In this document: piece by piece, positions 12,043 through 29,761 of the stretch
Position numbering within the stretch: position 1 is the first letter of the stretch
Layout: every line of letters starts with the position of its first letter
Origin: an uncultured Candidatus Saccharibacteria bacterium
GTDB lineage: Bacteria; Patescibacteriota; JABMPQ01; JAQVVF01
Direction: 5' to 3'
Assembly: GCA_964574655.1 (NCBI GenBank)
Contig: CAZNOH010000001.1
Location: 9,852 to 73,851 of the forward strand
DNA: 64,000 bases
Translations under genes and position numbers: made by a program
The notes under the pieces: generated by a model
What the model was told of the DNA's origin: nothing
Seen by the model: only the letters and a program-made list of their open reading frames with translations
Database searches by the model: none

Positions 12043-12154
12043 ATTATAAACAAATTTATTACAGATTATGGACAGATTACACAGATTATAAACTAAATTT
12101 TAGCTTATTCTCTTGTTTTTTGCAAGGATAAAATAAAAAACGGCGATCGGCCGC

Positions 12155-14888: not shown

Positions 14889-14949
14889 AGGTTTGTTTAA
14901 GTTCGAGTTATTATAACAGAAAACTTATTTTTTTGCAAGGGATTTTGTC

Positions 14950-14978
14950 TTGACAATATTGTTTTTCTTAATTATAGT
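14950..14978 (+). promoter_or_regulatory. Putative promoter TTGACA-N17-TATAGT for the P-loop kinase-like gene
   Basis: Consensus -35, 17-nt spacer, then a leader containing GATTGTTCTTTGACAAAG and the SD. Confidence 0.5.
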
Positions 14979-15030
14979 AAAAAGAAATATTGATTGTTCT
15001 TTGACAAAGACAAAGAAAGGAGGGAAGGCA

Positions 15031-16080
15031 ATGGTAATGGAAAATCTGATGCCTGAACAAGAAAAAGTAAAATTGGAACCATTAACAGCTTGGATGATGC
15101 GGGAACGGCGAGATTTTATAGCCAAATCTTCTTTGGCAGTGAGAGCTTTAGTTGTAGAGTTTTTGGGAATGGGCGGTTGTTGGAAAAGCACTTTGATCAA
15201 TGAATTGGTAACAAAATATTTCTATCCATTTGGCATTGAATTAGTGACTTATGAAGAGCCTGATAAAAAGATTCCGGAAGTTTCTCGAGAAAGGGAGCCA
15301 AAGAAGTTTCGCATCGCTACATATAGAAGAACTTTGGCTAATCTTGATGAAGCTTTGGGTTCAGTAAAAGATTTGGCTTTGTTTGATCGCGGACTTTTTG
15401 ATTTTATTGTTTGGTTTAATTTGGATTTTACCGGAGGGCTGTTGAGCGAAGAAGAATGCAGAAGAGGCATTGCTGATATCATGTTGCGTGGTTACGGAAA
15501 GGTTGACTTGATGTTTGTACATACAGATCAGGTTGCTTCTTGCTTGAAAAGCACTCCATCAATGGGTTCAACATCTTTAATGGATTCTTTTTATCTGTCT
15601 CGGCGGAATGCAGGAGAAAGGCAAATTCGTTTCCAGCTTTATCAAAGAATGTACCAAGAAATGTTTTTGGGCGATGAAAAAAAGTTAGTCAAAAAGGCTG
15701 TCAAATTTATGTTTGACATGAATTTGGGAAAGTTTAATCGTAATTTTGCTGAAGTTTTTTGGCAGGCAGTAGTGCTGATTGATCTGTATCTGGTCTTTCA
15801 GACTTGGGAAAGCCTTTTCTTGGATCGTTTTGGAGATGAATTGAAGCAAAATGAGCGCACATCTGATTTGGAAAAAAGGATTATGAAGTTAGGCGAGGCC
15901 TTGTTTTCGTCGCTAGAGCATTTGCGGAGGATTAAAGTTTATGAATTGCATGCAGATATAGTAAAGATCTTGGATTCATACGCGCAGACAGAATTTGTTA
16001 TTGCTCGGTGCGATGGATGGCGGGTGGTGGTTTCGGATATTTTCGGGTCTCCGCCAAAGTTTCGTATCTTGGAAGGTTAA
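15031..16080 (+). CDS. P-loop NTPase, deoxynucleoside/nucleotide-kinase-like
   Basis: Walker A-like VVEFLGMGGCWKSTLINEL followed by a DRGLFD motif. The start is set at the ATG 8 nt after AAAGGAGGG; the in-frame upstream Met at 14950 lies inside the promoter/leader. Confidence 0.45.
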   Translation: MVMENLMPEQEKVKLEPLTAWMMRERRDFIAKSSLAVRALVVEFLGMGGCWKSTLINELVTKYFYPFGIELVTYEEPDKKIPEVSREREPKKFRIATYRRTLANLDEALGSVKDLALFDRGLFDFIVWFNLDFTGGLLSEEECRRGIADIMLRGYGKVDLMFVHTDQVASCLKSTPSMGSTSLMDSFYLSRRNAGERQIRFQLYQRMYQEMFLGDEKKLVKKAVKFMFDMNLGKFNRNFAEVFWQAVVLIDLYLVFQTWESLFLDRFGDELKQNERTSDLEKRIMKLGEALFSSLEHLRRIKVYELHADIVKILDSYAQTEFVIARCDGWRVVVSDIFGSPPKFRILEG

Positions 16081-16105
16081 CTCCTCTTTTTGGGGAGTTT
16101 TTTAT
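16079..16105 (+). terminator. Terminator after the kinase-like gene
   Basis: AACTCCTCTTTTTGGGGAGTT followed by a T-run. It is near-identical to the terminator at 18470. Confidence 0.65.
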
Positions 16106-16185
16106 TGACAAAAAGTAATTATTTTATTATTATTGAGTAAGTTCTTTTATTGAGCGAGTTCTTTCAAAACTAGGAGGAGGAAGAA

Positions 16186-16986
16186 ATGGATGAAAAAAAG
16201 ACATTTAAGGTTGTATTGCCTTCGGGTGATGTGAAGGTTTGGGAATTTGATATTAAAACAAAGCCAAGTGAAGGATTGAATCAAAAAGCAGGAATTGGGA
16301 ATTTATTTTTTAAGTTTGGGAAGATAGCAGGAAAGATAATAGGATTATTTTTCTATTGGTTGGGACATGGATTTGTGTTGATGTTTAAGAAAATTCTAAA
16401 GGCGATTTCTGTCTTTGCAATATTGATTAAAAAAGTAGTGAAAAGAATTTATAGAAAAATGGAATTTCATGGTTTTTTGAGAGTCTTTTTGAATTTCTTT
16501 GTTTTGTTTATTTTAGGATTGGTCAGTTTTTGTTATTGGAAATGGCTAGTTCCTTGGATTCTGTCTGTTGAAGAGATAGCTTATCGTCATTCTGCAACTG
16601 TGTATTTTATTTATTTAGGGGTGTGTTTGTTAGTGACACTTGTATGGCTTTTTAGAAATCTGAATTCAAAAAAACGTAGTGAAATTACAGTTTTATATCT
16701 TGCTTTGATCTTGATTGTAATAGCAATAGCAATGTCAGGTTTTTTTGCTTTTCTAGCAATATCATTTTCTATTTATATCTTTGAAAATGTTGTTTTATCA
16801 GCGATTGTTCATGGGATTTTGCTCCTTTTAGCGATGATATTTGGTATTAGAGAAGCTGAATGGTTAAAACCGGATAAAAAAGAACAACTTGTAATGATTG
16901 ATAGAAACTTAATTGGATTGAAGCGTTTTGCCTCAGATAGCTTAAGAAAATTGGAAAGAATTGAGAAAGAACGTTCAAAAAAATAA
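16186..16986 (+). CDS. Paralog-family protein P1 (conserved N-terminal module MDEKKTFKVVLPSGDVKVWEF, polytopic membrane protein)
   Basis: N-terminal module shared with six downstream paralogs, at least five hydrophobic helices, strong SD AGGAGGAGG, leader motif GTTCTTTCAAAA. Confidence 0.6.
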   Translation: MDEKKTFKVVLPSGDVKVWEFDIKTKPSEGLNQKAGIGNLFFKFGKIAGKIIGLFFYWLGHGFVLMFKKILKAISVFAILIKKVVKRIYRKMEFHGFLRVFLNFFVLFILGLVSFCYWKWLVPWILSVEEIAYRHSATVYFIYLGVCLLVTLVWLFRNLNSKKRSEITVLYLALILIVIAIAMSGFFAFLAISFSIYIFENVVLSAIVHGILLLLAMIFGIREAEWLKPDKKEQLVMIDRNLIGLKRFASDSLRKLERIEKERSKK

Positions 16987-16993
16987 ATTTTAG

Positions 16994-17021
16994 TCCCAAT
17001 AAACAAGATTGGGATTTTTTC
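16994..17021 (+). terminator. Terminator after P1
   Basis: TCCCAAT-AAACAAG-ATTGGGA followed by TTTTTT. Confidence 0.7.
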
Positions 17022-17093
17022 TTAATTTTTTCTCTAGTAAAAAGTTTTAATAGTTAGATAATGGAGTTGTTCTTTGACAAAAAGGAGGAGAAA

Positions 17094-18452
17094 ATGAGCA
17101 AGTCTGTAGTACCGATTATTTTGCAGTCCATGAGACATGAGCAGGATTTATTTAAATGGAATCCAGAATTTGATTTGAATGTAGTTAATTTTGATCAGTT
17201 TAACAGGCCTTACATTAGGCAAAGAGGCAATGATGATCATGAGACTAGTTTTGTTCAAGTTTTGGATGACAGTGGAAAATTGGTAAAGTATGGTTTTGTG
17301 AAGGCAATTAAGGAAAGTTTTTCTGATTTTACAAAGACACTTTTAGGAGCTGGATCGCAGATGGCAAGGATTGTGTTTGATAAAGATAACCATGCTTATA
17401 CTTTAGTACGAATTGCTTGTGGCTTGGGAACGAAAGAAGTCCAGATAGGTTTGTTGCTTTATTCAAGAGATCAATGCAGAACTTGGCAAGTTTATAAGTT
17501 GCCGATTAATGGTGTGGCAACGATGGAATATTTTACCGGACATAATCAGATTAATGGACCGCCAATGATTGCTGTTTTTGAGAAAACAAAGGTGAAGGTG
17601 GCAAAATGGGCGACAATTCATAAATTATATGTTGTGGTGGTTAAAAAAACTAAGACAGGTCTTGAGTTTGAGCAGATAATAAAAGTGACAGAGAAATCTT
17701 TTGGTCTTTCAGCGCATTCTGGTGGGGCATCAGTCTTGGCTAGTTTAGATAGTAAAACGTATGTTATTTGGACAGAAGTAACTAATAACCCTAGTCATTT
17801 GGGATCGCCGACATTTGTAGCGACTTTTGATCATAGTTCCAAGAGATTAATCAATAAATCATTTGTTGGTTGTACATCAAAGCCGAAAAATGATATGCAC
17901 AATACTCCAGGGATTTGTTTGGATAGCCGAGGATTTTTAAATGTAATGCTTGGAGCGCACGCTGGTAGTTTTTTTTATGGCAGGAGCCAGATTTCTAACT
18001 CAGTAGAAAGAGGATGGACTTTGTTGCATGAAACATATTCGTCTGTCGGTCAAACTTATATTGCTTTGGTTTGTGATCAGGTAGATAATTTACATCTTGT
18101 TTTTCGGGATCATAGATATGGCAAAAGAGATTTTCACGCTAGCCATTTTCATTATTGCGCGCTTTGTTATCAAAGAATGTTAAAAGACGGATATTGGGAA
18201 GTTTCAAGACTATTGGTTGTGCCGCCATTGCCAGATTACAGCATCTATTATCATCAGTTGTCGATTGATCGATTAGGAAGATTGTTTTTATCTTACAATT
18301 ACTATAGCGAAAGTGAACCATACAAGAGTTGGATTGAGAAAAATGGCAGATATAATAAGAAATTTCGCGCTATGCTTTTTAGTGGAGATGGCGGTATGAC
18401 TTGGCAAATGGCGACAACGAGAATTTTTTTGGATGGATTTGTGAAGACTTGA
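17094..18452 (+). CDS. Hypothetical protein with two BNR/Asp-box-like motifs (possible beta-propeller)
   Basis: SRDQCRTW and SGDGGMTW match SxDxGxTW. SD AAAGGAGGAG and leader motif TTGTTCTTTGACAAA. The upstream in-frame Met at 17061 is in the leader. Confidence 0.4.
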   Translation: MSKSVVPIILQSMRHEQDLFKWNPEFDLNVVNFDQFNRPYIRQRGNDDHETSFVQVLDDSGKLVKYGFVKAIKESFSDFTKTLLGAGSQMARIVFDKDNHAYTLVRIACGLGTKEVQIGLLLYSRDQCRTWQVYKLPINGVATMEYFTGHNQINGPPMIAVFEKTKVKVAKWATIHKLYVVVVKKTKTGLEFEQIIKVTEKSFGLSAHSGGASVLASLDSKTYVIWTEVTNNPSHLGSPTFVATFDHSSKRLINKSFVGCTSKPKNDMHNTPGICLDSRGFLNVMLGAHAGSFFYGRSQISNSVERGWTLLHETYSSVGQTYIALVCDQVDNLHLVFRDHRYGKRDFHASHFHYCALCYQRMLKDGYWEVSRLLVVPPLPDYSIYYHQLSIDRLGRLFLSYNYYSESEPYKSWIEKNGRYNKKFRAMLFSGDGGMTWQMATTRIFLDGFVKT

Positions 18453-18469
18453 ACTTTGTTAGCTAGGTT

Positions 18470-18497
18470 AACTCTTCTTTTGGGGAGTTTTTTTATT
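18470..18497 (+). terminator. Terminator after the 17094 gene
   Basis: AACTCTTCTTTTGGGGAGTT followed by a T-run; a duplicate of the 16079 terminator. Confidence 0.65.
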
Positions 18498-18627
18498 TTT
18501 CCTAGTTTTTTCAATTTTTTTCTTTTTGATAAGAGATAATAATGAAAGTGGAAAGTAAAAGATAGGACTTTACAACTAGGACATGATCCGCTTTCGCTAA
18601 AGCTACGGCGGACAAAGGAGAACAGCC

Positions 18628-19653
18628 ATGAAGAATATCGGATCAAAATTGTTTGTGCTACTGGGGATGCTTTTGATCGTTATTGGAGCAATTTCGCTTT
18701 TGGTAGCAATTCTTTACGGCAAGTATTTTGCTTTTTTGGCCTTGTATCCTGATTTGGTAGATATGGTGGCGGATTTTGGAGTTAATATTTATCTGTCAAG
18801 AATTGTAGCAGTCTTTGTAACGATTGGATTGTGGGTAGCGATTTTCAAATTCTTGTTGAGCTTCAGCCAGAAAAAGAGAGAAATTGGTTTTTTCATTTTG
18901 TTAGGATTGTTTGTTCTGCATACCTTTTGTTTGTATATTATTAATTTGAATCGGTCTGTTTCTGTTGATGGGCAGGTGGGATTTTGCACGCGAGACCAAA
19001 TTACTGGACGAGTGGAATATTTCGATCGGTCTTTGTATGATGCTTCTGGCCAGAAAGCGGAAAAATGCACAAAAGATGAAATTCGGCAGCTCCGTGTTCA
19101 GGATAAATATCCCAATAATGAGATTCCTTTGATAGCGATTGGCAACTGGTTTGATGAGAATGGTAGTTCGTTGGTTTATTACTATAAAGATAGTCAAGGC
19201 GTACTTCATTTTCGTTATATGGGAGGTTTTGCTCAAACAGGAGAGATGTGGCAACAGGTAACAAAGGAAGTGCTTGGAAAAATCAGTCCAAATTTGCAGT
19301 CGCAGTTTCAGCAAACGAAAGGTGATGTTGTATTGAGGCATAATTTTGATGATCGACCGAATTTAAAGACTCTGTATAGAAATTCTTTGGCGGGATATCT
19401 GATTTTCTTTGTCTTTCTGAATATTGTTTTTTGGGTGGTGTTTTTGAAGATAGCAAGTCTTTCTTTTGGTACGAGGGCTAGTTTAATAGGTTTGGCTGGT
19501 TTGGTTAATCTGGTTGGTTTTTGCGGTATTGATTATGCATCAAGTTGGTCAGGATTGGCAGTTGCGGTTTTAATGATCAGCTTGGCATCGCCGTTTGTAA
19601 TTTCTTTCGTCAAAGGTTTCTGGACAGGAATGAGAGAGAGCAGGCCCGTCTAA
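18628..19653 (+). CDS. Membrane protein, unknown function
   Basis: N- and C-terminal TM clusters flank a ~170 aa hydrophilic domain. SD AAAGGAGAACAGCC precedes the ATG. Confidence 0.55.
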   Translation: MKNIGSKLFVLLGMLLIVIGAISLLVAILYGKYFAFLALYPDLVDMVADFGVNIYLSRIVAVFVTIGLWVAIFKFLLSFSQKKREIGFFILLGLFVLHTFCLYIINLNRSVSVDGQVGFCTRDQITGRVEYFDRSLYDASGQKAEKCTKDEIRQLRVQDKYPNNEIPLIAIGNWFDENGSSLVYYYKDSQGVLHFRYMGGFAQTGEMWQQVTKEVLGKISPNLQSQFQQTKGDVVLRHNFDDRPNLKTLYRNSLAGYLIFFVFLNIVFWVVFLKIASLSFGTRASLIGLAGLVNLVGFCGIDYASSWSGLAVAVLMISLASPFVISFVKGFWTGMRESRPV

Positions 19654-19696
19654 TTAAGGGCGGGAGGTCAACCAACTGGAAGAGGAGGAGACGGTC

Positions 19697-19927
19697 ATGA
19701 CAGGATACACAATCGCAATGTTGATTACTGGCGGGATTTTGCTGATTGTCGGTGTTTTGATTGTAACAGGCGTTTGGAATCCATTTTCTAAGAAGGATGC
19801 AGATGGCAAGAAGGAGCCGTTGTCCCGAAAGGAAAAAGGGATGGTGGCAGGCTTCTTTGCAATGCTGATTCTGGCAATCGTGAATTTCTTCTACGCCATT
19901 TTTCCGATGCAGAAGCGAAAGTCCTAA
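19697..19927 (+). CDS. Small 2-TM protein (paralog of 28448..28696)
   Basis: 76 aa with two hydrophobic helices, shares the W-x-PF...K-x-PL-x-KEK pattern with the 28448 ORF, SD GAGGAGGAG, followed by terminator hairpin CCCGA/TCGGG. Confidence 0.55.
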   Translation: MTGYTIAMLITGGILLIVGVLIVTGVWNPFSKKDADGKKEPLSRKEKGMVAGFFAMLILAIVNFFYAIFPMQKRKS

Positions 19928-19945
19928 AATATCATTCGTTCATTC

Positions 19946-19969
19946 ATCCCGATTTATTCGGGATTTTTA
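19946..19969 (+). terminator. Terminator after the small 2-TM gene
   Basis: CCCGA-TTTAT-TCGGG followed by ATTTTTAT. Confidence 0.55.
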
Positions 19970-20047
19970 TTTAATTGACAATAAGATTCTTTTATACTAT
20001 GTTGGAGAGAATGTTCTTTTCAAAATAGAAGAAAGGAGGAAAAAAGG

Positions 20048-20794
20048 ATGTCTAAGGGAGAGAAATTTAAAGTAATTGATCCATCGGGGGAATTGAAGGA
20101 ATGGTCATTTAAAGAAAAGCCAAAAAGTGCTGAACCAATGGTTTGTGAGGAAAAGAGAATAGAAACAAAGCCAAGTGTATTTTTCGAACTTGGAAAAATG
20201 TTTGGAAAAAAAATGAAGTTCTTGAAGTTATACGGAGTATGGATTATTTTTTGCATTTTGGGTATTCTCGCTGTTTTTTTTATTTGGGTATTGGCAATTT
20301 TTGTGCATGGAAGCGATTTTCTTTCTCAGACCATTCCAATACAGTCTAGGTCGCAACAGAAGCAAAGTATTGTCACACAAAATACCAAAGTGGTACAAAG
20401 ATCATGGCCACTGGGAAGCAAAGCAGAAGTATTGGTAGAAGATGTGGAGTGGAATTATTCAAGAAATGAGTTTTACTGTAATTTACATGAGATTAAGGGA
20501 TGGAGTGTTGTTTTTGATCGGGTAGAGACGCGGATCTGGAAATTACAGAAAAGTGATGAATCACCACAAGTTTTTAAACAAAGAGAGCCTCATTATTGGA
20601 CCCGAAACGTGCATCTTAATATTAGGCCTTTTCAACGTTATTGTGGAAAAGATAGACGGTCAGATCGTTGCGTGATAACTTTGGAAAACTATCGAGCATG
20701 GCTACAAGAAATAGAATGGATTGAGGTGAAACTTTTAGGTAAAGATGCACGAGGAAATGAAGTGAGTGTGGTTTTAGAGACTTATGATCATTGA
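20048..20794 (+). CDS. Paralog-family protein P2 (N-module + 1 TM + C-terminal domain shared with P6)
   Basis: MSKGEKFKVIDPSGELKEWSF, one TM. The C-terminal ~115 aa are alignable with the C-terminus of P6 (RIWKLQ..ESPQ.FKQR.P..WTR.VH...LENYRAWLQ..EWIE.KL.GKD.RGNE). Confidence 0.6.
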   Translation: MSKGEKFKVIDPSGELKEWSFKEKPKSAEPMVCEEKRIETKPSVFFELGKMFGKKMKFLKLYGVWIIFCILGILAVFFIWVLAIFVHGSDFLSQTIPIQSRSQQKQSIVTQNTKVVQRSWPLGSKAEVLVEDVEWNYSRNEFYCNLHEIKGWSVVFDRVETRIWKLQKSDESPQVFKQREPHYWTRNVHLNIRPFQRYCGKDRRSDRCVITLENYRAWLQEIEWIEVKLLGKDARGNEVSVVLETYDH

Positions 20795-20952
20795 TATTTA
20801 TACAGTTTTTTGAAGCTGTATTTTTTTTCTTAACTTTTTCAATTTTCTTTTTAAAGATTTGTTCTAATATTAGGTTAGATGATAGTTGACTAATTTTATT
20901 GTTCATGCTATCCTACAGTGATTGTTCTTTGACAAATCAAGGAGGAAGGAAA
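20795..20952 (+). repeat. Array cassette copy A (terminator + CTTAACTTTTTCAATTTTC box + promoter + GTTCTTTGACAAA leader + SD)
   Basis: About 85-95% identical to cassettes B-E over ~130 nt, by direct reading. Confidence 0.8.
20886..20914 (+). promoter_or_regulatory. Cassette promoter (TTGACT-N17-TATCCT) of P3
   Basis: Part of the duplicated cassette; same geometry in all five array copies. Confidence 0.45.
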
Positions 20953-21558
20953 ATGCCAGAAGAAAAGAAAACTTTTCAAGTGATTGCGCCGGATGGAGAG
21001 CTGAAAGAATGGGAAATTGAGAATTCAAAAGAAATAGGATTGGTGGAAAACAAGTTTAAAGAGAGACGAGCGATTTCAGTGAATGTTTTTTTTAGATGTG
21101 GAAGATGGGCAGGAAAAATAATATTGGGTTGGTTTTCTTTTTTCGTTTCAAAATTAGAACTTTTATTAAAACAAAAAGCCGAAAAGAAATTATTGAAAGT
21201 AAAAGAGAAAGTTGAAAGGGAAGAGAGTAAACGGTTAAAAATAAAGAGAATACATGAAGAAAGAATGCATGAAGAAGCAAAGAGAAAAGAATTAATTTTG
21301 CAGAGTATTGATGTTTTGGACAATGCGGGATATCACGAAAAAGCTGCAAGGATTGCTAAGGAGACAGGAAGTTATGAGAGAGCTATTGATATTTTAGATC
21401 GTACTGGACACCATGAAAAAGCTGCAGAGATTGCTGAGGAGGTAGGAAATTATGGGAAAGCTATTGATATTTTGGTACGATCGGGACATCACGGAAAAGC
21501 AGGGAGAATTGGTGAAAGACTTGCTAGAAGATCTAATAATTCTGTAAAAAAAGTTTAA
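20953..21558 (+). CDS. Paralog-family protein P3 (N-module + tandem 19-aa helical repeats)
   Basis: MPEEKKTFQVIAPDGELKEWEI, then three tandem repeats of G[YH]HEKAA.IA.E.G.Y..AIDIL.R.GHH. The start is at the ATG after AAGGAGGAAGGAAA. Confidence 0.6.
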   Translation: MPEEKKTFQVIAPDGELKEWEIENSKEIGLVENKFKERRAISVNVFFRCGRWAGKIILGWFSFFVSKLELLLKQKAEKKLLKVKEKVEREESKRLKIKRIHEERMHEEAKRKELILQSIDVLDNAGYHEKAARIAKETGSYERAIDILDRTGHHEKAAEIAEEVGNYGKAIDILVRSGHHGKAGRIGERLARRSNNSVKKV

Positions 21559-21746
21559 GATTTAAATAAAGATACTATTTTATTAATTTGTACCTTTTCG
21601 GAGTTTTCTCCGATTTTTTTTATTAACTTTTTCAATTCTCTTTTTAATAATTTGTATTAAAATTAGATTAGATGGATAGTTGACCAATCTTATTGTTCAT
21701 GCTATTCTTCAGTGATTGTTCTTTGACAAATCAAGGAGGAAGGAAA
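21559..21746 (+). repeat. Array cassette copy B
   Basis: Hairpin TCGGAG/CTCCGA, the TTAACTTTTTCAATTCTC box, promoter, leader and SD. Confidence 0.8.
21680..21708 (+). promoter_or_regulatory. Cassette promoter (TTGACC-N17-TATTCT) of P4
   Basis: Duplicated cassette copy. Confidence 0.45.
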
Positions 21747-22838
21747 ATGGCAGAAGAAAAGAAAACTTTTCAAGTGATTACGCCGGATGGGGAATTGAAA
21801 GATTGGGAATTAGATGCGCCTAAACTAAAAAAGGCGGATGATAAGCTTAATAAAAAAAATCAGAGTTTGAGATTGGCTTTTGAATGGATGAAGAAAGCAG
21901 GAATGGCAACAGGAAAACATTATAGATTAATCCTGATTGTTGCGAGCTGTGTTTATTTGGCGGTATGGATTTGGCAAGAAAGATCTTTTCGTCTTGAAGA
22001 ACTTCATCGTCAAGAAGTAGTAGCTATGCAGTTACAGCAAAAAGAGAAAGCTAGAATGAGAGTAGGAGAAGAAAAAAAGGAAGAGAAGATTGCAACCACA
22101 AAGGCACAAAAAACTGACGAAAAAACACAAGAGGTTGAAGAAAAAGTTGAAGTTGCAGAACCTGAAAAAGAAAAAGAATGCTATGGTAAAGGGAACAAAT
22201 TGGTGAATGGGGTATGCGTACTAGAACATGTTATAAGAATGCATGAACAGTACGAGCACGAATTACAAAAAGAAAGACAAGCAGACAAAGAGAGACAACG
22301 TGGAGATGAGTTACGCAGGAAAGAAGTGTTTCACAGACAAGAGGAAGCTTGGTTGGTAGAAGAAGCAATGCGAAAGTTAGAAGTGGAGCGGAAAGAGGAG
22401 CACGAAGCTATTTTGGGACAACGACATGAGTATTTGAAAGAGCAACGAAGATTAGAAAGAGAGAGCAATCCTCATGTATATAGATCAAAATATCCAGTAG
22501 TTTTAAAGCCAGATTTATTAATAAAAGGAGCCTCTTCTAGCGTGATAGACGTTCCGGATGACTTTATAATCAGAGAAGTCATTATTGAACTAGATGTGAA
22601 GGTGGATAAACAGTATCTTCCATCTCAAAGTCATTTTGATTGTAATCTCTTGAGATCAGGCAAATTAATTAGTTTAAAAGGTTGTTGTATAGGTGGATGT
22701 GTTTTTAGCGAATTTATTCGTGAATCGTCAAGAGGGGAATGGAAAATATTGAAGAAAAAAATGCCAGGACGATTTCTTAGGTGGAAGATAACAATTGTCC
22801 CGGCAATTGCAGAAGATGGAACAGTGTTAAAACCTTAG
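21747..22838 (+). CDS. Paralog-family protein P4 (N-module + TM + charged coiled-coil + P-domain-like C-terminus)
   Basis: First ~90 aa identical to P5. E/K/R/Q-rich middle section. C-terminal ~95 aa alignable with P5 (VIDVPDDF.IR...CNL.RSGK...GEWKI...ITI.PA.AEDGTVLKP). Confidence 0.6.
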   Translation: MAEEKKTFQVITPDGELKDWELDAPKLKKADDKLNKKNQSLRLAFEWMKKAGMATGKHYRLILIVASCVYLAVWIWQERSFRLEELHRQEVVAMQLQQKEKARMRVGEEKKEEKIATTKAQKTDEKTQEVEEKVEVAEPEKEKECYGKGNKLVNGVCVLEHVIRMHEQYEHELQKERQADKERQRGDELRRKEVFHRQEEAWLVEEAMRKLEVERKEEHEAILGQRHEYLKEQRRLERESNPHVYRSKYPVVLKPDLLIKGASSSVIDVPDDFIIREVIIELDVKVDKQYLPSQSHFDCNLLRSGKLISLKGCCIGGCVFSEFIRESSRGEWKILKKKMPGRFLRWKITIVPAIAEDGTVLKP

Positions 22839-23002
22839 ATCTTTTTTGTTAAAACGCGCATTATTGACGCGTTTTTTTCTTAACTTTTTCAATTTTGTTT
22901 TTGAAGATTTGTTCTAACATTAGGTTAGATGATAGTTGACCAATCTTATTGTTCATGCTATTCTTCAGTGATTGTTCTTTGACAAATCAAGGAGGAAGGA
23001 AA
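22839..23002 (+). repeat. Array cassette copy C
   Basis: Hairpin AACGCG/CGCGTT; the remainder is near-identical to copy B and continues into the identical first ~270 nt of P4/P5. Confidence 0.8.
22936..22964 (+). promoter_or_regulatory. Cassette promoter (TTGACC-N17-TATTCT) of P5
   Basis: Duplicated cassette copy, identical to the P4 copy. Confidence 0.45.
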
Positions 23003-23959
23003 ATGGCAGAAGAAAAGAAAACTTTTCAAGTGATTACGCCGGATGGGGAATTGAAAGATTGGGAATTAGATGCGCCTAAACTAAAAAAGGCGGATGATAA
23101 GCTTAATAAAAAAAATCAGAGTTTGAGATTGGCTTTTGAATGGATGAAGAAAGCAGGAATGGCAACAGGAAAACATTATAGATTAATCCTGATTGTTGCG
23201 AGCTGTGTTTATTTGGCGGTATGGATTTGGCAAGAAAGATCTTTTCGTCTTGAAGAACTTCATCGTCAGCAGGTAGTAGCTAAGCAGTTACTGCAGGTGG
23301 AAGAAGGAAAAAGAGAGAGAATAAGAATACGAACAGATGAAGAAAGAAAACGTCGTGATGAAGTAGAGAGACAACAGTTGGAACGGCAAAGGTTGGAAGA
23401 ACAGCTGTGGGTAGAAGAGGAGCATAGCAGGCAGGCAAAATTACGTCAGACGAAAGATGATAGGAGACGTCGTGATGAAGAGGAAAGACGGCTGATAATG
23501 TTGCGTCGACAAGAGGAAATCAGATTGGCACGAGAGGCAAAGCAAAGAGAGAGGGAAGAACGTGAACCGCATACATATAAAACGAGTCAGCCAATGGTAT
23601 TAAAAGCAGGCGCATCACAAGAAGCTTATTTTAAATTTGCAGAGAGTGTAATTGATGTTCCAGATGATTTTTATATTAGAGGGATTAGGATTTGGTTAAA
23701 GTTGGATGTTAAGAGCTTTTATAGAGATGAATTTTTAAAACCTCGTTATGACGGTTTAGAATGTAATCTCGTGAGATCTGGCAAGGTAACTTTTTTAAGA
23801 GATTGTTGTCTTGATGGATGTCTTTTTGATGAATTTAATAGTGAATCGTCAAAAGGAGAATGGAAGATAAAGGTAAGAGCAGTAGAAGGATGGATTAATT
23901 CGTGGCAGATAACAATTACGCCAGCAGTTGCAGAAGATGGGACAGTATTAAAACCATAG
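23003..23959 (+). CDS. Paralog-family protein P5 (mosaic paralog of P4)
   Basis: Identical to P4 over the promoter, leader and first ~90 codons, diverges into an R/E-rich coiled-coil, then rejoins P4 in the C-terminal beta-domain. Confidence 0.6.
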   Translation: MAEEKKTFQVITPDGELKDWELDAPKLKKADDKLNKKNQSLRLAFEWMKKAGMATGKHYRLILIVASCVYLAVWIWQERSFRLEELHRQQVVAKQLLQVEEGKRERIRIRTDEERKRRDEVERQQLERQRLEEQLWVEEEHSRQAKLRQTKDDRRRRDEEERRLIMLRRQEEIRLAREAKQREREEREPHTYKTSQPMVLKAGASQEAYFKFAESVIDVPDDFYIRGIRIWLKLDVKSFYRDEFLKPRYDGLECNLVRSGKVTFLRDCCLDGCLFDEFNSESSKGEWKIKVRAVEGWINSWQITITPAVAEDGTVLKP

Positions 23960-24125
23960 ATTGTTTTTTGTTAAAACGCGCATGTGTCGCGTTTTTTTTT
24001 TAACTTTTTCAGTTTTCTTTTTAATAATTTGCATTAAAATCAGATTAGACGGATAGTTGACCAATTTTATTGTTCATGCTATCCTGTAGTGATTGTTCTT
24101 TAAACAAAGAAAAGAGGAGGGAAGT
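23960..24125 (+). repeat. Array cassette copy D
   Basis: Same terminator type as copy C, box TTAACTTTTTCAGTTTTC. The leader variant ends GTTCTTTAAACAAAGAAAAGAGGAGGG. Confidence 0.75.
24057..24085 (+). promoter_or_regulatory. Cassette promoter (TTGACC-N17-TATCCT) of P6
   Basis: Duplicated cassette copy. Confidence 0.45.
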
Positions 24126-25271
24126 ATGCCTACAGAAAAGATATTTAGGGTGATTACGCCGGCAGGAGAGAGAAAAGAGTGGGTGATAAAAAATGAAGCT
24201 TGCGAAGTTCAACCTAAATGTTTAGTGCAAGAACAAAAGAAAGATAGATTTGATGGATTTTTAGATGGAGTGAGCAAGAAATTGGGTGAAGCGGGAAAGG
24301 AATTAGCTAAAATAACAGTTTCTTTTATTTCATGGTTGAGAACGAATATTAGAGTGATCTTGCTTGCTATGTTAGTCTTAGCGGCTTGTATAGCGCTATG
24401 GCGCTTAGTAGTTTTTGTAGGCATTCTATACGAGGCATTTGTTGATTGGTTGACGAAAAATAAATCTTCAGATGGAGCATGGTGGATGACTTATTTTCTT
24501 GGCATTGGCATATGGTTGATGATTGCTGTTGTTTATTTTCTGTTGATCTATGTCAAAAGAGAACACAGAATTTGGGGAGTTCGTTATTATGATTTTGCTG
24601 ACTTTTTTTGGTTCTTGGCATTAGGAGTATTTTTAGCATTTGTTGGCGGGTTAATTTCAGCGCAGGTCGCTTCTTGGCTTGCTTCGATTGTACCTTGGTA
24701 CTTGTCAATAATTATTCCATTAGCGGTTTCTTTGTTAGGAATTGGATTGATTAAAAACGGAATTTATCAATGCAATTTTGATGAAAAAGTTTGGTGGATA
24801 GTTATTCTAGCTGTGATATTGTTAGTCTCTGGAGTTAAAGCAGGCTGTGAATTAAGAAAAAAATGGCAGACTGAAAGAGAAGAATCTTTACGACAGCAAG
24901 CAGTTGAGCGTTTGAAATGCAAGGCAAGAATTTTGGTAGAACATTCAAGTTGGGGTTGGTCAAATAATGAATTTCATTTTAGTTTACAGGACATGGGAAA
25001 TTGTGGAGTTGTTTTGAATAAAGCGGAAGTCAGGATTTGGAAATTGCAAGAAGATAATGAATCTCCGCAATCTTTTAAGCAACGCCAGCCGTTTTTTTGG
25101 ACAAGAGATGTTCATTTTGAGGCTGACTCATTTCAATGCATGGAGGGTAGTATAAAATTGGAAAATTATCGGGCTTGGTTGCAAGATAAAGAATGGATTG
25201 AAATTAAACTATTTGGTAAAGATGAGCGTGGAAATGAGTTAATTGTACTTTTGGAAGCATATGATGAATAA
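24126..25271 (+). CDS. Paralog-family protein P6 (N-module + polytopic membrane region + C-terminal domain shared with P2)
   Basis: MPTEKIFRVITPAGERKEWVI, about six hydrophobic helices, C-terminal domain homologous to the P2 C-terminus. Confidence 0.6.
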   Translation: MPTEKIFRVITPAGERKEWVIKNEACEVQPKCLVQEQKKDRFDGFLDGVSKKLGEAGKELAKITVSFISWLRTNIRVILLAMLVLAACIALWRLVVFVGILYEAFVDWLTKNKSSDGAWWMTYFLGIGIWLMIAVVYFLLIYVKREHRIWGVRYYDFADFFWFLALGVFLAFVGGLISAQVASWLASIVPWYLSIIIPLAVSLLGIGLIKNGIYQCNFDEKVWWIVILAVILLVSGVKAGCELRKKWQTEREESLRQQAVERLKCKARILVEHSSWGWSNNEFHFSLQDMGNCGVVLNKAEVRIWKLQEDNESPQSFKQRQPFFWTRDVHFEADSFQCMEGSIKLENYRAWLQDKEWIEIKLFGKDERGNELIVLLEAYDE

Positions 25272-25465
25272 TATTATTACAGCTCTTTAAAGCTGTATTT
25301 TTTTCTTAACTTTTTCAATTTTCTTTTTTATAATTCGTATTAAAATCAGATTAGATGAATAGTTGATCAATTTTATTGTTCATGCTATTCTATAGTGATT
25401 GTTCTTTGACAAATCAATCCGCCTTCATCTCTGCGGAGACTACGGTGGACAGGGGAGGAAGGAAA
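25272..25465 (+). repeat. Array cassette copy E (with a ~40-nt GC-rich leader insertion)
   Basis: Hairpin ACAGCT/AGCTGT, box, promoter TTGATC-N17-TATTCT. The leader GTTCTTTGACAAATCAA is interrupted by TCCGCCTTCATCTCTGCGGAGACTACGGTGGACAGG before GGGAGGAAGGAAA. Confidence 0.75.
25363..25391 (+). promoter_or_regulatory. Cassette promoter (TTGATC-N17-TATTCT) of P7
   Basis: Duplicated cassette copy. Confidence 0.4.
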
Positions 25466-26269
25466 ATGGCAGAAGAAAAGAGGACTTTCAAGGTTGTTGC
25501 GCCGGATGGAGAGTTGAAGGAATGGGAGTTTGGAGCTTCGGAGGCAAAGAAAAGTATCTCTTTAGAATCATGTCAGTCAACTAAAACAGATGAGATTATC
25601 AAACATTCTTCAAATCAGATTCGAGCAGAAGCGTATATAGTTGTTTTTAAGATCGGTAAATGGTTGGGAAATGTGATTAAACATTTTGTTTTGCAACTTA
25701 GGATATTTTGGCAAAAAATGACAGCTAAGAAATATTCTACTTATGATGATTTTCAGAAAGGCAAGTGTCTTATGGTAGTAGAGGAAGACTTGATTATTAG
25801 TGAAAAGGAACTTAGATATGAACAATCATATGGAAGATCGTATTTGAAATTAATTATGGTAATTTCATGTCTAAGGGAAATAAATGTTGTTTTCACAAAA
25901 GGCAAAGTTGTAGGCGAGAGTGAATATGGTCTTGCAGAATTTGATATTACTGGTTGTATTAGGAATTTGGAAATTTTTGTTTTTGTAGACAGAAAAGAAA
26001 TAGTTATCGATTTGAGTTGTTTAATCAGTCTGATTGAAAAATGTGAAGTGTTAAATATAGAACTTTTGGGGAGCGAAACAGATTTGTTTTCAGGGCAAAA
26101 AAGATTGAGAAAAATTCGTTTTGAATTTGCTAAATTAGGAGGTAAATTAGTTAAATATCATTGTACTTTTTGTGATTCTAGTGCTTTCTCTTCTGATTTG
26201 CTTTTTTATTCCCAATTTATTTGGGATTTTTTATTTTTCTTAATTTTTTCAGTATTTTTCTTATTATAA
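25466..26269 (+). CDS. Paralog-family protein P7 (N-module + distinct body + C-terminal hydrophobic tail)
   Basis: MAEEKRTFKVVAPDGELKEWEF. Its leader carries a ~40-nt GC-rich insertion relative to the other cassettes. The C-terminus FLFFLIFSVFFLL is hydrophobic. Confidence 0.55.
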   Translation: MAEEKRTFKVVAPDGELKEWEFGASEAKKSISLESCQSTKTDEIIKHSSNQIRAEAYIVVFKIGKWLGNVIKHFVLQLRIFWQKMTAKKYSTYDDFQKGKCLMVVEEDLIISEKELRYEQSYGRSYLKLIMVISCLREINVVFTKGKVVGESEYGLAEFDITGCIRNLEIFVFVDRKEIVIDLSCLISLIEKCEVLNIELLGSETDLFSGQKRLRKIRFEFAKLGGKLVKYHCTFCDSSAFSSDLLFYSQFIWDFLFFLIFSVFFLL

Positions 26270-26325
26270 AAAAGCAAAAATGAAGCTAGCAGATAGTTCT
26301 TTCACAACAGGCAAAGGAGGACAAA

Positions 26326-27285
26326 ATGTGGGCGAAAATCGGGTTTTTTTTGCTGGCAGTCTTGGCAATTTATATCGGCATTGCGCTTTTAGTAAAGTTT
26401 TTTCCGCAGATTTTTCGGCAAAAAAATCTTGATACTCTGCGGAGGGCAAGCGGAAATATGTTTGTTCCTCAAGGCGCTTTTGGAAGAACTCTTGGATTAA
26501 CATTGGGAATTCCGGTGGCGATAATGGGAGTAACAGCAGTAGTAGAATTTGAACAAAAAAGATTGCTAGGTTTGAAAATTAGAGAACTGGAAAATAAGAT
26601 AGTTGCTAAATTAAGCAAAGGAATTATTTATTTTATTTCGCTTAGAGTTTTTTTGGATGAGAAGTTGAGTTTGTGGAAAAGACAGATTGCAATTGGTGAA
26701 TTTGAGCATCTTAGTTTGTTGGGCGAGGTTGATGATTTGGCGAGAAAATTAAAAGATTTTTGGCCAGTGATTTCAGAAATCGAAGTTTTGCTGGCAGATA
26801 ATTTTCAATTGTTAGAAAAAGTGAAGCAAATGCAGTTGCCTTCGGAAATTAATGGCGAGGTTGGGAAATTGGAGCAGGCTTTGAGGGAATACCAGAAAAT
26901 AACGATAGATTTTGACAGTTTGGCGCCTTTTGTTTCTTTGGGCGATGATTTGAAACAGATCAATACTTTATTAAAGCAAATTATGATGATGGATTCTGAA
27001 TTGCAGAATAAGATTGAGCCTAAAAAAGATTATTATATCATTTTAGGACTTAAAAAAAATGCTTCACAAGAAGAGATAAAGAAAGCTTATCGAGCTTTGG
27101 CGATAAAATTTCATCCTGATAAAAAAAGATCCCAATTGGAAAAAATTGACGATGAGGATATGAAAGCCAGAATTGAAGAAGAATATAATCGGATGCTGGC
27201 GGATATTAATGAAGCTTATGGAATTTTATTAGATGTCCAAAAGAGAGAAGAATATGACCGAACTTTTTCGTCAAGTACTTTTTAG
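26326..27285 (+). CDS. DjlA-like membrane-anchored J-domain co-chaperone
   Basis: Two N-terminal TM helices, a coiled-coil middle, and a C-terminal J domain with HPD (DYYIILGLKKNASQEEIKKAYRALAIKFHPDKK). Confidence 0.7.
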   Translation: MWAKIGFFLLAVLAIYIGIALLVKFFPQIFRQKNLDTLRRASGNMFVPQGAFGRTLGLTLGIPVAIMGVTAVVEFEQKRLLGLKIRELENKIVAKLSKGIIYFISLRVFLDEKLSLWKRQIAIGEFEHLSLLGEVDDLARKLKDFWPVISEIEVLLADNFQLLEKVKQMQLPSEINGEVGKLEQALREYQKITIDFDSLAPFVSLGDDLKQINTLLKQIMMMDSELQNKIEPKKDYYIILGLKKNASQEEIKKAYRALAIKFHPDKKRSQLEKIDDEDMKARIEEEYNRMLADINEAYGILLDVQKREEYDRTFSSSTF

Positions 27286-27364
27286 TATTTGACATTTTTC
27301 TTTTGTTTTGTTTGAACAAGATAAAAGAAAGATAGTTAGCTCTTTAAAAAAAGGAGGGAGAGAC

Positions 27365-28192
27365 ATGGCAAACATAGTCAAGAGGCCAGAATCAGTAACA
27401 GCGCTTTTGACTGATATTCGGAAATTTACAGGCGGTCAATTTTCATCAGTTAGAAAAGAAGATCAGCAGGCAAGTTTTGGCAAAAAACTGCAAGTTGTTT
27501 TTCTGTTTGATACAACTGGAAGCATGTATCCGTATTATGAGCTTGGCAAGAAGCAAATTAGCCAGATAGTTTCGAAGGTCGTAGAAAAACATCGGCAGGC
27601 GCAGTTTTGCTATTTGGCTTATAAGAATCATGGCGATGAAACAGAATTTTTTGACGGCGAGAATCCTTTCTTTGCCTCTTCTTTTACCAGTGATCCAGAA
27701 CAAATCAAGTTGGAATTAGAGAAGGTGAAGAATGGAGGCGGAGGCGATGGTTTGACAGCTTTGGAATGCGTTTTTCATTATCTTAATGTAAATGTCAAAT
27801 GGCAAGATTCGGCAACAAAAATTGTGGTTTTAATTGGCGATATGCCGCCTCATGGAGTGATTGATTCGGTAGCAAAATGTCCAAAAAAGCATAATTATCA
27901 AGATGAGATTGCGCAAATGAAGGCGAAAGGGATAAAGGTTTATTCAGTATTCTGTTTTGAAGAGGGTAATTTGGTTTCATCTCGGATAAAGCAGGTTAAA
28001 ATGTTTTTTAGGGAAACAGCTTCAAGAACTAATGGGCGCTATCTGGAATTGGCAGAGATTGGAGAAATTGTTGATTTGTTGACAGGAATTTGCATGAAGG
28101 AAATTGGTCATTTGGATGAATTTGTCAAGGATTTGGAAAGATTGCAGCAGCTTTCCGATGGGAAGAGAAGACTGTTGCTGGCACTGAAGTAA
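27365..28192 (+). CDS. von Willebrand factor type A (vWA) domain protein
   Basis: MIDAS-like VVFLFDTTGSM with an alpha/beta alternation typical of vWA. Start is the ATG after AAAAAGGAGGGAGAGAC. Confidence 0.6.
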   Translation: MANIVKRPESVTALLTDIRKFTGGQFSSVRKEDQQASFGKKLQVVFLFDTTGSMYPYYELGKKQISQIVSKVVEKHRQAQFCYLAYKNHGDETEFFDGENPFFASSFTSDPEQIKLELEKVKNGGGGDGLTALECVFHYLNVNVKWQDSATKIVVLIGDMPPHGVIDSVAKCPKKHNYQDEIAQMKAKGIKVYSVFCFEEGNLVSSRIKQVKMFFRETASRTNGRYLELAEIGEIVDLLTGICMKEIGHLDEFVKDLERLQQLSDGKRRLLLALK

Positions 28193-28202
28193 GGAGGAAG
28201 CC

Positions 28203-28457
28203 ATGGTAGAAGAACGGAATGAAACAGTTGCAAAAGGAATTAATTTTTTGTTGGATATGGCTGCAAATATGGGCAAGATGGCAGTGAACAATGTTTTTGA
28301 AGTGGAGACAGCGGATGATAGGACAAAAGAAGTGAGCAAAGCGGAGATCAAGAAAAGTTTCAGAAAGCAATTGATAAAAATGGTCTTGGATTTTTTCGGT
28401 GACGAGGAGGATGAGCAGAAACCCGAAGACAAACAAGGAGGCGAGCCATGTGGTTGA
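28203..28457 (+). CDS. Small acidic hypothetical protein
   Basis: 84 aa, SD TAAGGAGGAAGCC, overlaps the next ORF by 10 nt (coupling). Confidence 0.45.
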   Translation: MVEERNETVAKGINFLLDMAANMGKMAVNNVFEVETADDRTKEVSKAEIKKSFRKQLIKMVLDFFGDEEDEQKPEDKQGGEPCG

Positions 28458-28696
28458 CAATTCTTTTGATTGTTTTGTCGGCAATTGCGATGTTGGTTGG
28501 TTCGGCTTTGATTTTGGATTTTTGGACGCCTTTCAAAAATGAACATGGCGAAAAAACGCCGCTGTTGCCAAAAGAAAAAAGTGCAGTCGGAGTGATTGTG
28601 CTAGGAATAGTTGTTTCATTGTTATCATTGATCTTTGTTGCTAATCCGCCTTGGCTTAGTCAGCTTCGCGAGAAGATGAAGTCTAACAAGGCGTGA
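28448..28696 (+). CDS. Small 2-TM protein (paralog of 19697..19927)
   Basis: 82 aa, two hydrophobic helices, shared W.PF...K.PL..KEK pattern, SD AGGAGGCGAGCC, followed by terminator CCCGAA/TTCGGG. Confidence 0.55.
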   Translation: MWLTILLIVLSAIAMLVGSALILDFWTPFKNEHGEKTPLLPKEKSAVGVIVLGIVVSLLSLIFVANPPWLSQLREKMKSNKA

Positions 28697-28710
28697 ACTT
28701 TTGTACTTTA

Positions 28711-28735
28711 CCCGAAAATAACTTCGGGTTTTTTA
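28711..28735 (+). terminator. Terminator after the second small 2-TM gene
   Basis: CCCGAA-AATAAC-TTCGGG followed by TTTTTTA. Confidence 0.65.
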
Positions 28736-28865
28736 TTTAATCGACAAGTTGTTATTAAAAACGTATAATTTAGATAATAAAAATATAAAATTTATATTAA
28801 ATTAAAATAAAAATATTTGTTCTTTGAAAAAAAGGAGGGCGTAAAAATGGCGTGGTTGAAGAAAA

Positions 28866-29618
28866 ATGATTGAATGGATAAAAGTTGTGATTAATAATTT
28901 TATTCCTATTGTAAAAGAATTGCTAAGTGCAAGAATTTCAAAAATGAGGCAAGTGATTGTTAATTTTCGATATTGGAGATTGATGTCATTTGTTTTTGTA
29001 TCTGTTTGTTTGTTGGTAGTCTTTTTGTTTAATGCTAATTTGAGTTATGAAAATTTAGATTCAGACTTTGATGTTAAATCTAATATTGTTGATTTGAATA
29101 AGCGAGATGTTGGAATCTTGAATTATCAAGATGTGATTTTGTCTTCAGGGCCATTTTTGGATTCTGGCAATGTTGTTTTTGATAGGCCACAAAAACAGAT
29201 TGTTGTCGTAGAAAAAAGATTTGAGAAAATAAAAGTGAAGGAAAAATTGAAGAGAGATTTTTGGAGGGTGTTTTTTGTTGTAGATGATAAATCATTGGAT
29301 GCAAAAGCTACGAGATGGAAGGCTGATCTTTCGCAGATGAGATACATATGTAATTCAAATTGGAATAGACGAGCTGATGTTGTTTGCAAGAGACATGATT
29401 ATTTTTGTACTGTTGCATTTGAGATTGTTTTGGACGGACAGAAATATAAAGTTGTTTTTAGATCAGATGTTGCTATGAATGGCTTTGACAGGGTAAGTAA
29501 GATGAAAGTGTATGTTTGGGGACAAGAAAATATGAAAATTGATATAGAAAACAGTAAGGATTTGGTTGGCAAAATAATTGCATTAAGACCAAAGTGTTCG
29601 CCTTTTTCAAGTGATTAG
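28866..29618 (+). CDS. Hypothetical N-terminally anchored protein; start overlaps a 8-codon uORF
   Basis: SD AGGAGGG serves ATG 28847 (MAWLKKND, stop 28871-73). The main ATG at 28866 lies in another frame inside the uORF, so its true start is uncertain. Confidence 0.45.
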   Translation: MIEWIKVVINNFIPIVKELLSARISKMRQVIVNFRYWRLMSFVFVSVCLLVVFLFNANLSYENLDSDFDVKSNIVDLNKRDVGILNYQDVILSSGPFLDSGNVVFDRPQKQIVVVEKRFEKIKVKEKLKRDFWRVFFVVDDKSLDAKATRWKADLSQMRYICNSNWNRRADVVCKRHDYFCTVAFEIVLDGQKYKVVFRSDVAMNGFDRVSKMKVYVWGQENMKIDIENSKDLVGKIIALRPKCSPFSSD

Positions 29619-29761
29619 TTTGTTCTTTTTGGGGTCAAAATGCTATATTCTGGCATTTTTTTATTGATTGTTGTCTTGTTTGTGGCGAAATCTAATTTTT
29701 TCTTGCATTATTTAATATTACGTGGTAAGATAAGAAATACAAATTTTAAAATTATTACATT

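Follow-up and report, generated by a model that had tools for sequence, protein, structure and literature searches.

The stretch analyzed here (the window) comprises 64,000 nucleotides (nt) of contig CAZNOH010000001.1 of assembly GCA_964574655.1, from an uncultured Candidatus Saccharibacteria bacterium. Its plus strand carries, at 14950-29620, an array of short transcription units in which one order of parts recurs: an intrinsic terminator, a promoter of the TTGACA-17-TATAAT type, a short leader element resembling the BoxA of ribosomal RNA (rRNA) operons, an AAGGAGG Shine-Dalgarno (SD) sequence and an open reading frame (ORF). We investigated this leader element, G[T/C]TCTTT[N]A[N]AA, which 17 leaders of the window carry in sense orientation and ahead of a strong AAGGAGG. 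Within the array, promoters were predicted at 14950, 16105, 19975, 20886, 21680, 22936, 24057 and 28741, and terminators at 16079, 16992, 18470, 19946, 21598, 23973, 25278, 26210, 27270 and 28710. The predicted promoter-like sites upstream of the motif are of the consensus type in at least 8 units. The motif stands once per transcription unit, at its head, and the sites are as follows.

14996-15007, plus strand: BoxA-like site GTTCTTTGACAA, leader of 15031 (AAA_28-like NTPase), one mismatch to the BoxA consensus GYTCTTTAANA; promoter upstream at 14950-14978.
16141-16169, plus strand: two tandem copies, GTTCTTTTATTG and GTTCTTTCAAAA, 17 nt apart, leader of 16186; the first lies 7 nt past the -10 sequence TATTAT.
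17069-17080, plus strand: BoxA-like site GTTCTTTGACAA, leader of 17094 (BNR_4 protein, probably of foreign origin).
18565-18576, plus strand: degenerate copy GGACTTTACAAC, followed by a structured insert (18588-18612) and then the SD of 18628.
20013-20024, plus strand: BoxA-like site GTTCTTTTCAAA, leader of 20048.
20924-20935, plus strand: BoxA-like site GTTCTTTGACAA, leader of 20953; paralogous leader 1.
21718-21729, plus strand: BoxA-like site, leader of 21747; paralogous leader 2.
22974-22985, plus strand: BoxA-like site, leader of 23003; paralogous leader 3.
24095-24106, plus strand: BoxA-like site GTTCTTTAAACA, leader of 24126; paralogous leader 4.
25401-25412, plus strand: BoxA-like site GTTCTTTGACAA, followed by a structured insert (25418-25449) and then the SD of 25466; paralogous leader 5.
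26296-26307, plus strand: BoxA-like site GTTCTTTCACAA, leader of 26326 (membrane DnaJ-domain protein).
27339-27350, plus strand: BoxA-like site GCTCTTTAAAAA, a perfect match to GYTCTTTAANA, leader of the operon 27365 (VWA)-28203-28448.
28819-28830, plus strand: BoxA-like site GTTCTTTGAAAA, leader of an 8-codon upstream ORF at 28847 and of gene 28866.
43437-43448, plus strand: BoxA-like site GTTCTTTTGATA, leader of 43481; kept in the orthologous leaders of relatives L125, L126, L127 and L162.
45115-45126, plus strand: variant GTTCCTTACAAT, leader of 45147 (MFS transporter, not in close relatives).
49781-49792, plus strand: BoxA-like site GTTCTTTTGACA, leader of 49816 (Cys-rich 123-amino-acid protein, not in close relatives).
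12944-12955, minus strand: BoxA-like site GCTCTTTAAAAA, a perfect match to GYTCTTTAANA, leader of 12931 on the minus strand (DA1-like protein).
RNA form of the site: 5'-UUGUUCUUUGACAAA-3', the putative target of NusB-S10.

A first-pass annotation of this DNA had reported 15 such sites and placed them 2-15 nt before the SD sequence. All 15 are where it had put them, but the list was incomplete, as it lacked the site before 12931 on the minus strand, the degenerate copy before 18628 and the second tandem copy at 16141. The spacing also proved to be wider, since 2-20 nt separate the 12-mer from GGAG in 15 of the 17 leaders and 40-41 nt in those of 18628 and 25466. That the motif lies downstream of the -10 sequence holds wherever a clear TTGACA-17-TATAAT promoter was found, and the motif is indeed a shared sense-strand element of the transcribed leader and not a -35 box; the TTGACA that it contains has no -10 sequence at 17 bp and is lost in the variants. 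At 28847, where the same annotation had set a gene start, there is an SD-linked ATG, but it opens only an 8-codon upstream ORF (MAWLKKND and a stop, 28847-28873), and the main gene, which encodes 250 amino acids, starts at 28866. The stop codon of the upstream ORF overlaps the ATG of this gene (ATGA), an arrangement that suggests translational coupling via a leader peptide.

The motif is over-represented in the window. Allowing at most one mismatch, TGTTCTTTSAMAA has 11 matches where 2.5 are expected, a number reached in 0 of 100 shuffles, and GYTCTTTRANA has 10 matches against 2.2 expected, 9 of them in sense-strand leaders. The 7-mer GTTCTTT occurs 27 times, 23 times on the plus strand and 4 times on the minus strand, and 13 of the 23 plus-strand copies have GGAGG and a start codon within the next ~25 nt. 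Since the leaders of 20953, 21747, 23003, 24126 and 25466 are paralogous duplicates over ~130 bp, they are not independent, and the number of independent leaders is about 12. A position matrix built from the 14 distinct sites has G1 in 14/14, Y2 in 13/14, T3 in 13/14, C4 in 14/14, T5 in 13/14, T6 in 14/14 and T7 in 14/14; position 8 is free, and positions 9-12 are A-rich.

These data bear on whether the motif might be a DNA operator, bound between promoter and SD by a lineage-specific repressor or activator. Such a reading would account for a motif that is shared and close to promoters (it starts 5-9 nt past the -10 hexamer in 7-8 leaders) and that has a weak TTGT-N6-ACAA symmetry. However, 17/17 copies point the same way, they stand anywhere between 5 and 50 nt past the -10 sequence, a true dyad is lacking, and no gene for a DNA-binding regulator is close by. 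In an unrelated genome, moreover, the same sequence is the BoxA of an rRNA operon. Together these points make an operator very improbable. The boxes of Firmicute-type regulators (cre, CodY, CtsR, Rex, LexA and CRP/FNR-like TTGT-N6-ACAA) were rejected for lack of a dyad, strict orientation and a host that is not a Firmicute. Likewise rejected were a Bacteroidetes-type promoter with a -7 TAnnTTTG, given the canonical TATAAT promoters upstream; an extracytoplasmic function (ECF) promoter on the opposite strand, for which the geometry is wrong; and a CsrA site, for which the spacing of ACA and GGA is not fixed. Resemblances to the CspB/CspE heptamer GTCTTTG and to the T7 epsilon enhancer were superseded by BoxA.

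To relate the motif to SD usage we tabulated 51 genes of the window, counting an SD if it lay 4-16 nt before the start and a core if G[TC]TC[TC]TT lay within 60 nt upstream. By this count 21 of the 51 genes are SD-led and 30 are SD-less. The core was found in 15 of the 21 SD-led genes, and 18628 and 25466 add two more, in which it is ~55 nt from the SD because a structured insert of ~30 nt intervenes. The motif thus accompanies 17/21 SD-led genes as against 0/30 SD-less genes (Fisher p=1.7e-8); the first-pass annotation had raised the case that the motif might precede most genes, and in the window it does not. Within the operon headed by 27365, the internal genes 28203 and 28448 have a strong SD without the motif, and the motif is therefore tied to the head of the unit and not to each ribosome-binding site.

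The identity of the motif is suggested by its match to BoxA, whose consensus in gamma-proteobacteria is GYTCTTTAANA (Baniulyte et al. 2017, PMC5725501). When the 17 window sites are compared with this consensus, 2 have no mismatch, 11 have one and 4 have two or three. BoxA consensus sequences drift between phyla. Both positions critical in the BoxA of suhB, C4 and T6, are invariant (each 14/14 distinct sites), and a C4T/T6C mutant abolishes suhB BoxA function (PMC5725501). Moreover, an unrelated genome (L120) with a complete rRNA operon, as identified by Rfam, contains the exact 13-mer GTTCTTTGACAAC twice in that operon, once ~64 nt upstream of the 16S gene and once 8 nt past the spacer tRNA, ~90 nt upstream of the 23S gene. 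Canonical BoxA elements lie upstream of the 16S and 23S genes (PMC5725501), and by sequence and placement both copies occupy canonical rrn BoxA positions. Neither the window nor the loci of relatives that were examined contain an rRNA operon, and a Nealsonbacteria locus (L113) considered as a possible rRNA leader was dropped, as it holds no rRNA. Rfam gave no match at the gathering threshold over the whole window and only chance-level matches in a permissive scan of 14800-29000, and no boxB- or boxC-like partners were identified at the window sites. The assignment draws on sequence, anatomy and comparison, with L120 as the source of the rrn BoxA. On these grounds we consider it likely that the leader motif is a BoxA-type element, a site for NusB-NusE(S10), which heads at least 17 short units.

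A different explanation, which is compatible with BoxA, would place the action at the level of DNA: TTCTTT on the non-template strand would be a NusG-dependent pause, or an ops-like loading site for a NusG paralogue, and polymerase would stall where GACAA ends, ~5 nt further on and shortly before it transcribes the SD. The published NusG pause motif is TTNTTT at -11 to -6, in which the three final T are critical and the two initial T enhancing, and the scaffold used in cryo-electron microscopy carries TTCTTT followed by G at -5. TTCTTT is present in 13/17 window sites and TTT is kept in 16/17, while the variants of a relative, described below, keep TTT and vary in the first two T. The leader location agrees with published data that place ~20% of B. 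subtilis pauses in 5' leaders, and the anatomy (once per unit, sense strand, accessory genes) is like that of RfaH and ops. Compared with the pauses of B. subtilis and M. tuberculosis, however, the conserved positions that TTNTTT leaves unexplained, namely the invariant G1, C4 and the A-rich positions 9-12, are all BoxA positions and do not fit the pause logo, and TTNTTT is far too frequent in a genome of 33% GC to be specific. No upstream pause hairpin is evident, and Pfam scans of the window found no NusG paralogue (KOW/NGN). Neither is there similarity to the ops consensus, GGCGGTAGnnTG. We regard a NusG pause as an unlikely explanation of the element.

The first-pass annotation had instead proposed that UUCUUU pairs with the purine-rich SD region in a hairpin that occludes the SD. 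Such a hairpin would act in the manner of an RNA thermometer, like the fourU or ROSE elements, or of a translational brake. In the minimum free energy structures of most leaders UUCUUU(G) is indeed paired, either to AAGGAG or to CAAAGAA, with energies of -4 to -8 kcal/mol. The probability of pairing between motif and SD reaches 0.6-0.8, clearly higher than in controls with a shuffled motif, for the leaders of 17094, 20048, 20953/21747 and 28847. Over all leaders, however, partition-function pairing exceeds 0.6 in only 6/16 and is at most 0.35 in 10/16, and the z-scores are mostly weak. In a relative the variants GTTCATTT and GTACATTT break the C-G pair and lose complementarity to the SD, and the motif is 40-66 nt from the SD in 18628, 25466 and L162. 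Any U/C-rich run would pair with AAGGAGG, which leaves the conserved G1, C4 and A-rich tail unexplained, and the SDs of 28203 and 28448 are equally strong without the motif. As a general mechanism the hairpin is not supported, and we think it quite improbable as the reason for the motif.

The first-pass annotation had also allowed for a motif with no conservation at orthologous loci; it is in fact kept in L125-L127, L162 and L159. Orthologues of 43481 in three relatives with ~90% UvrA identity (L125, L126, L127) retain both the promoter and GTTCTTT. In L162 (80% UvrA identity) the motif of the 43481 orthologue lies 6 nt past the -10 sequence, other leader sequence differs, and the SD is 66 nt away. 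In the distant relative L159 (32-57% protein identity), whose housekeeping genes are SD-less, four orthologues have one of GTTCATTT, GTACATTT and GCTCTTTAAAA at 8-17 nt upstream of AGGAGG, in leaders that are otherwise unalignable with those of the window. These variants are a phylogenetic footprint, in which the positions that matter are G1, C4, TTT and then the A-rich tail. Conservation also bears on whether the motif is a functionless passenger, spread by tandem duplication of a promoter-leader cassette. Five leaders are indeed ~130-bp duplicates and seven downstream proteins have an N-terminal module in common, but at least 10 leaders of unrelated genes share only the 12-mer and the SD, the motif is kept at orthologous sites of diverged relatives, and it is present on a gene of apparently foreign origin. 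We give this explanation next to no credence.

The gene of foreign origin, 17094 (BNR_4), has a native promoter-BoxA-SD leader, and its closest homologue, on a contig of 70% GC, is without such a leader. Beyond the group, the same 14-mer followed by SD and ATG was found in ~22 independent metagenome leaders. Among the matches listed for metagenome-assembled genomes, the combination occurs in Omnitrophota, two Patescibacteria (Nealsonbacteria and one unclassified), a delta-proteobacterium, Paenibacillus and Nitrospira. Viral contigs yielded 5 matches to the pattern, while two scrambled 13-mers had 0 and 1, which is a crude indication of enrichment.

Several points weigh against the BoxA assignment. 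The promoters are predicted, and the sites for NusB-S10 are putative. The organism's own rRNA operon and its nusB, rpsJ, nusG and rho genes all lie outside the window, and the rrn comparison rests on L120. The gamma-proteobacterial A is less frequent at position 8 than G, C or T, and the commonest variant in L159 has an extra A (GTWCATTT) that makes it unlike the published BoxAs compared. The TTCTTT core coincides with the NusG pause motif, which leaves room for an action at the DNA level in part of the signal. As for the counts, duplicates make up 5 of the 17 copies, the enrichment across phyla rests on rough expectations, and a genome scan was dominated, among the matches listed, by a Rhizobium coding-sequence match.

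Within the metagenome matches, we also observed a conserved leader, CCTTGTTCTTTGACAAYTGAATAGYGAAAGGAGG, before a ~570-amino-acid protein with a Cas4-like N-terminus (..LNEFAYCPRLAYLEWVQ..) in six contigs (L025, L119, L142, L148, L150 and L154) of Nitrospirota/Nitrospira type with a GC content of 0.54-0.60. From its sequence and position this leader is probably a BoxA on a cas operon. In two Paenibacillus species (L011 and L094), TGTTCTTTGACAATTTAGGAGG is conserved directly upstream of a gene whose product starts MCGIVG (a GlmS-like N-terminus).

NusB-S10 binds to BoxA RNA, and a Nus-modified polymerase then assembles around it, with an outcome that depends on context (PMC5725501; 2025 review): antitermination on rRNA and on clustered regularly interspaced short palindromic repeat (CRISPR) arrays, and translational repression followed by Rho termination at suhB. 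BoxA elements before protein-coding genes and CRISPR arrays are documented and can act in either direction (PMC5725501, PMC7665894). One of the nearest parallels to the window is the BoxA in the 5' untranslated region of suhB in E. coli and Salmonella (also found at rpsJ, prsA and ParE-like toxin genes; PMC5725501), which is likewise a sense-strand BoxA in the leader of a protein gene and close to the SD. There the gap between BoxA and SD is 6 nt, compared with 2-20 nt in the window, and the core GYTCTTT with C4 and T6 is conserved in both. Known BoxA elements of protein genes number 0-7 per gamma-proteobacterial genome, mostly at Nus or translation genes and in autoregulation (PMC5725501), whereas the window has at least 17 units in 64 kb. 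Its targets are lineage-specific membrane or unknown proteins, its host is a member of the Patescibacteria with an SD-less core, its position 8 is usually G, C or T, and its elements are known so far from their sequence. With the rrn BoxA of leader and 16S-23S spacer (rrnTAC), the window shares the 13-mer GTTCTTTGACAAC found at both rrn positions of L120, and recognition by NusB/S10 is presumed to be the same; rrn BoxA elements, however, serve long untranslated rRNA, while those of the window serve short, translated, monocistronic mRNAs that end in intrinsic terminators. The BoxA of CRISPR arrays (Stringer et al. 2020, PMC7665894) is similar in its re-use outside rRNA, in many phyla and at accessory loci, and the cas4-like leader with the 14-mer recalls it, but it shields untranslated arrays from Rho, whereas the window elements precede strong SDs and ORFs.

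By analogy with these systems, the leader BoxA, once transcribed, would bind the NusB-NusE(S10) heterodimer, which together with NusG and NusA would turn RNA polymerase into a Nus-modified elongation complex, as on rRNA operons. Both the binding of NusB/S10 to the sites and any effect on expression are points that we infer. Two outcomes may be envisaged. The one that we favour slightly is that Nus factors gate the initiation of translation, perhaps with premature termination afterwards, since the 12-mer ends 2-20 nt before GGAG in 15/17 leaders, a geometry like that of suhB; such gating would tie BoxA-led genes to the free S10/NusB pool and hence to rRNA synthesis. The alternative is classical antitermination, which would protect transcripts or extend them across the many terminators between units.

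By its UvrA, RpoC, RecA and other housekeeping proteins the window belongs to the Patescibacteria, and the best named UvrA matches are to a 'Patescibacteria group bacterium'. An SD is absent from the housekeeping genes rpoC, ftsK, recA, efp, rpsF, ssb, uvrA, uvrC, polX, groES/EL, rnj and others, whose leaders are A/T-rich (for example those of 1831, 5810, 9246, 29762, 46834 and 57895), while the 21 SD-led genes are almost all lineage-specific. Relatives have few SD-led genes (3/21 in L125, 0/7 in L160, 3/11 in L162 and 2/20 in L163), and the same split between an SD-less core and SD-led lineage-specific genes is seen in L125, L159/L160, L162 and L163. In a published survey the anti-SD motif is rarer in a subgroup of the Parcubacteria (PMC9297842). 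We advance, as a tentative possibility that we hold to be doubtful, that BoxA and a strong SD form a separate expression channel. Core genes would be translated independently of the SD, and fast-diversifying envelope or accessory genes would be read from consensus promoters by Nus-modified polymerase and translated by way of the SD, with an output set by the free NusB/S10 pool. If true, this would be a genome-scale Nus-factor regulon that couples the host-interaction genes of an episymbiont to the activity of its single rRNA operon.

BoxA and the Nus factors are usually seen as dedicated to rRNA. Only hisG and suhB are given as protein-coding targets in the 2025 review, and PMC5725501 contributes one more, a ParE-like toxin gene. 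If 17 or more units in 64 kb are led by BoxA in a candidate phyla radiation genome, this would be the first plausible case of Nus control over a whole class of accessory genes. The BoxA element itself is already known; what differs is that at least 17 copies stand in 64 kb, that the targets are lineage-specific, mostly membrane, proteins and that the core genes of the host are SD-independent. In our literature searches no paper connected BoxA, or a leader motif of any kind, with genes of Patescibacteria, and a search with the literal motif sequence returned nothing relevant. The clean division into two gene classes, an SD-less core and genes with SD and BoxA, bears on how ribosomes of reduced-genome Patescibacteria choose start sites and on how surface and accessory genes are regulated in episymbionts with almost no classical transcription factors.

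The genes behind the motif had been described by the first-pass annotation as a regulon of accessory membrane and secreted proteins in an accessory island. The motif does mark a distinct, mostly lineage-specific set, and 10 of the 17 first genes have segments resembling transmembrane helices, but only part of the island is accessory. The genes at its core (15031, 18628, the DnaJ-domain gene 26326, the VWA gene 27365, 28448 and one gene with the N-terminal module) have orthologues of 32-57% identity in L159-L161, where a smaller cluster occupies the same place and a 608-amino-acid flanking protein is 48% identical; on this sequence evidence the island core is conserved by descent. To this cluster the window adds the BNR_4 gene (17094-18452) and a tandem family of six further genes with the module. 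The closest homologues of the BNR_4 gene, at most 44% identical, lie on 70% GC contigs of another phylum together with PEP-CTERM and type II secretion system genes, and the gene was probably acquired horizontally. Seven genes (16186-16986 and 20048-26269) encode a common N-terminal module of ~22 residues (M.EEKKTF.V..P.GELKEWE), followed by transmembrane segments and unrelated C-terminal domains, and the proteins of 21747 and 23003 are identical over their first 88 residues; judging by these sequences the set looks like a diversifying cassette family. The module has no confirmed relatives in viral or metagenome contigs and no match in Pfam, PADLOC or NCBIfam, and neither PADLOC nor NCBIfam assigned a function to the island proteins. 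Outside the island, 45147-46646 (MFS), 49816-50187 and 52891-53181 on the minus strand are not in L125-L127, which are otherwise syntenic with a 90% identical UvrA. From this comparison all three look like recent insertions between uvrC, uvrA and polX; the last has an SD without a BoxA-like site.

Other sequence elements were seen in the leaders. A second T-rich element, TTCTTAAYTTTTTCARTWTTT, has 9 matches against 0.41 expected, with sites at 12994-13014 (minus strand), 18499-18519, 20827-20847, 21620-21640, 22877-22897, 23997-24017, 25303-25323 and 26237-26257. It is always in the sense direction and directly behind the preceding terminator, with 38-76 nt between it and the BoxA-like site downstream, and it also occurs in L159 upstream of 7445 and 5465, and so is conserved at 32-57% protein identity. 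A role as -35 box or UP element was rejected on spacing. The inserts at 18588-18612 and 25418-25449, between BoxA-like site and SD, are homologous structured sequences of ~30 nt with an outer stem UCCGCY/GGYGGA, an inner stem of 2 bp (GC/GC) in 18628 and of UCUC/GAGA in 25466, and then CUAC; their folding z-scores are only -0.9 and -1.2. The order of BoxA and then hairpin in these two leaders recalls phage nut sites.

The SD-less genes have a feature of their own, in that nearly every one of their leaders holds its own short tandem repeat, with a unit of 7-11 nt in 3-7 copies. Examples are found at 1689-1822, 9177-9216, 10919-10969, 12037-12100, 31355-31396, 37139-37177, 46712-46764, 49708-49773, 52783-52829, 57475-57526, 57818-57889 and 61204-61245. 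The repeat unit CGCTGATTTT(G)A is present at two distant sites, 31355-31396 and 61204-61245, and the leaders of L162 and L163 likewise carry tandem repeats, with other units. Lastly, ribosomal protein S6 (29762-30265) is 167 amino acids long, with the Pfam S6 domain confined to residues 2-90, and its long C-terminal extension holds a GAAGA-rich repeat (30125-30155).

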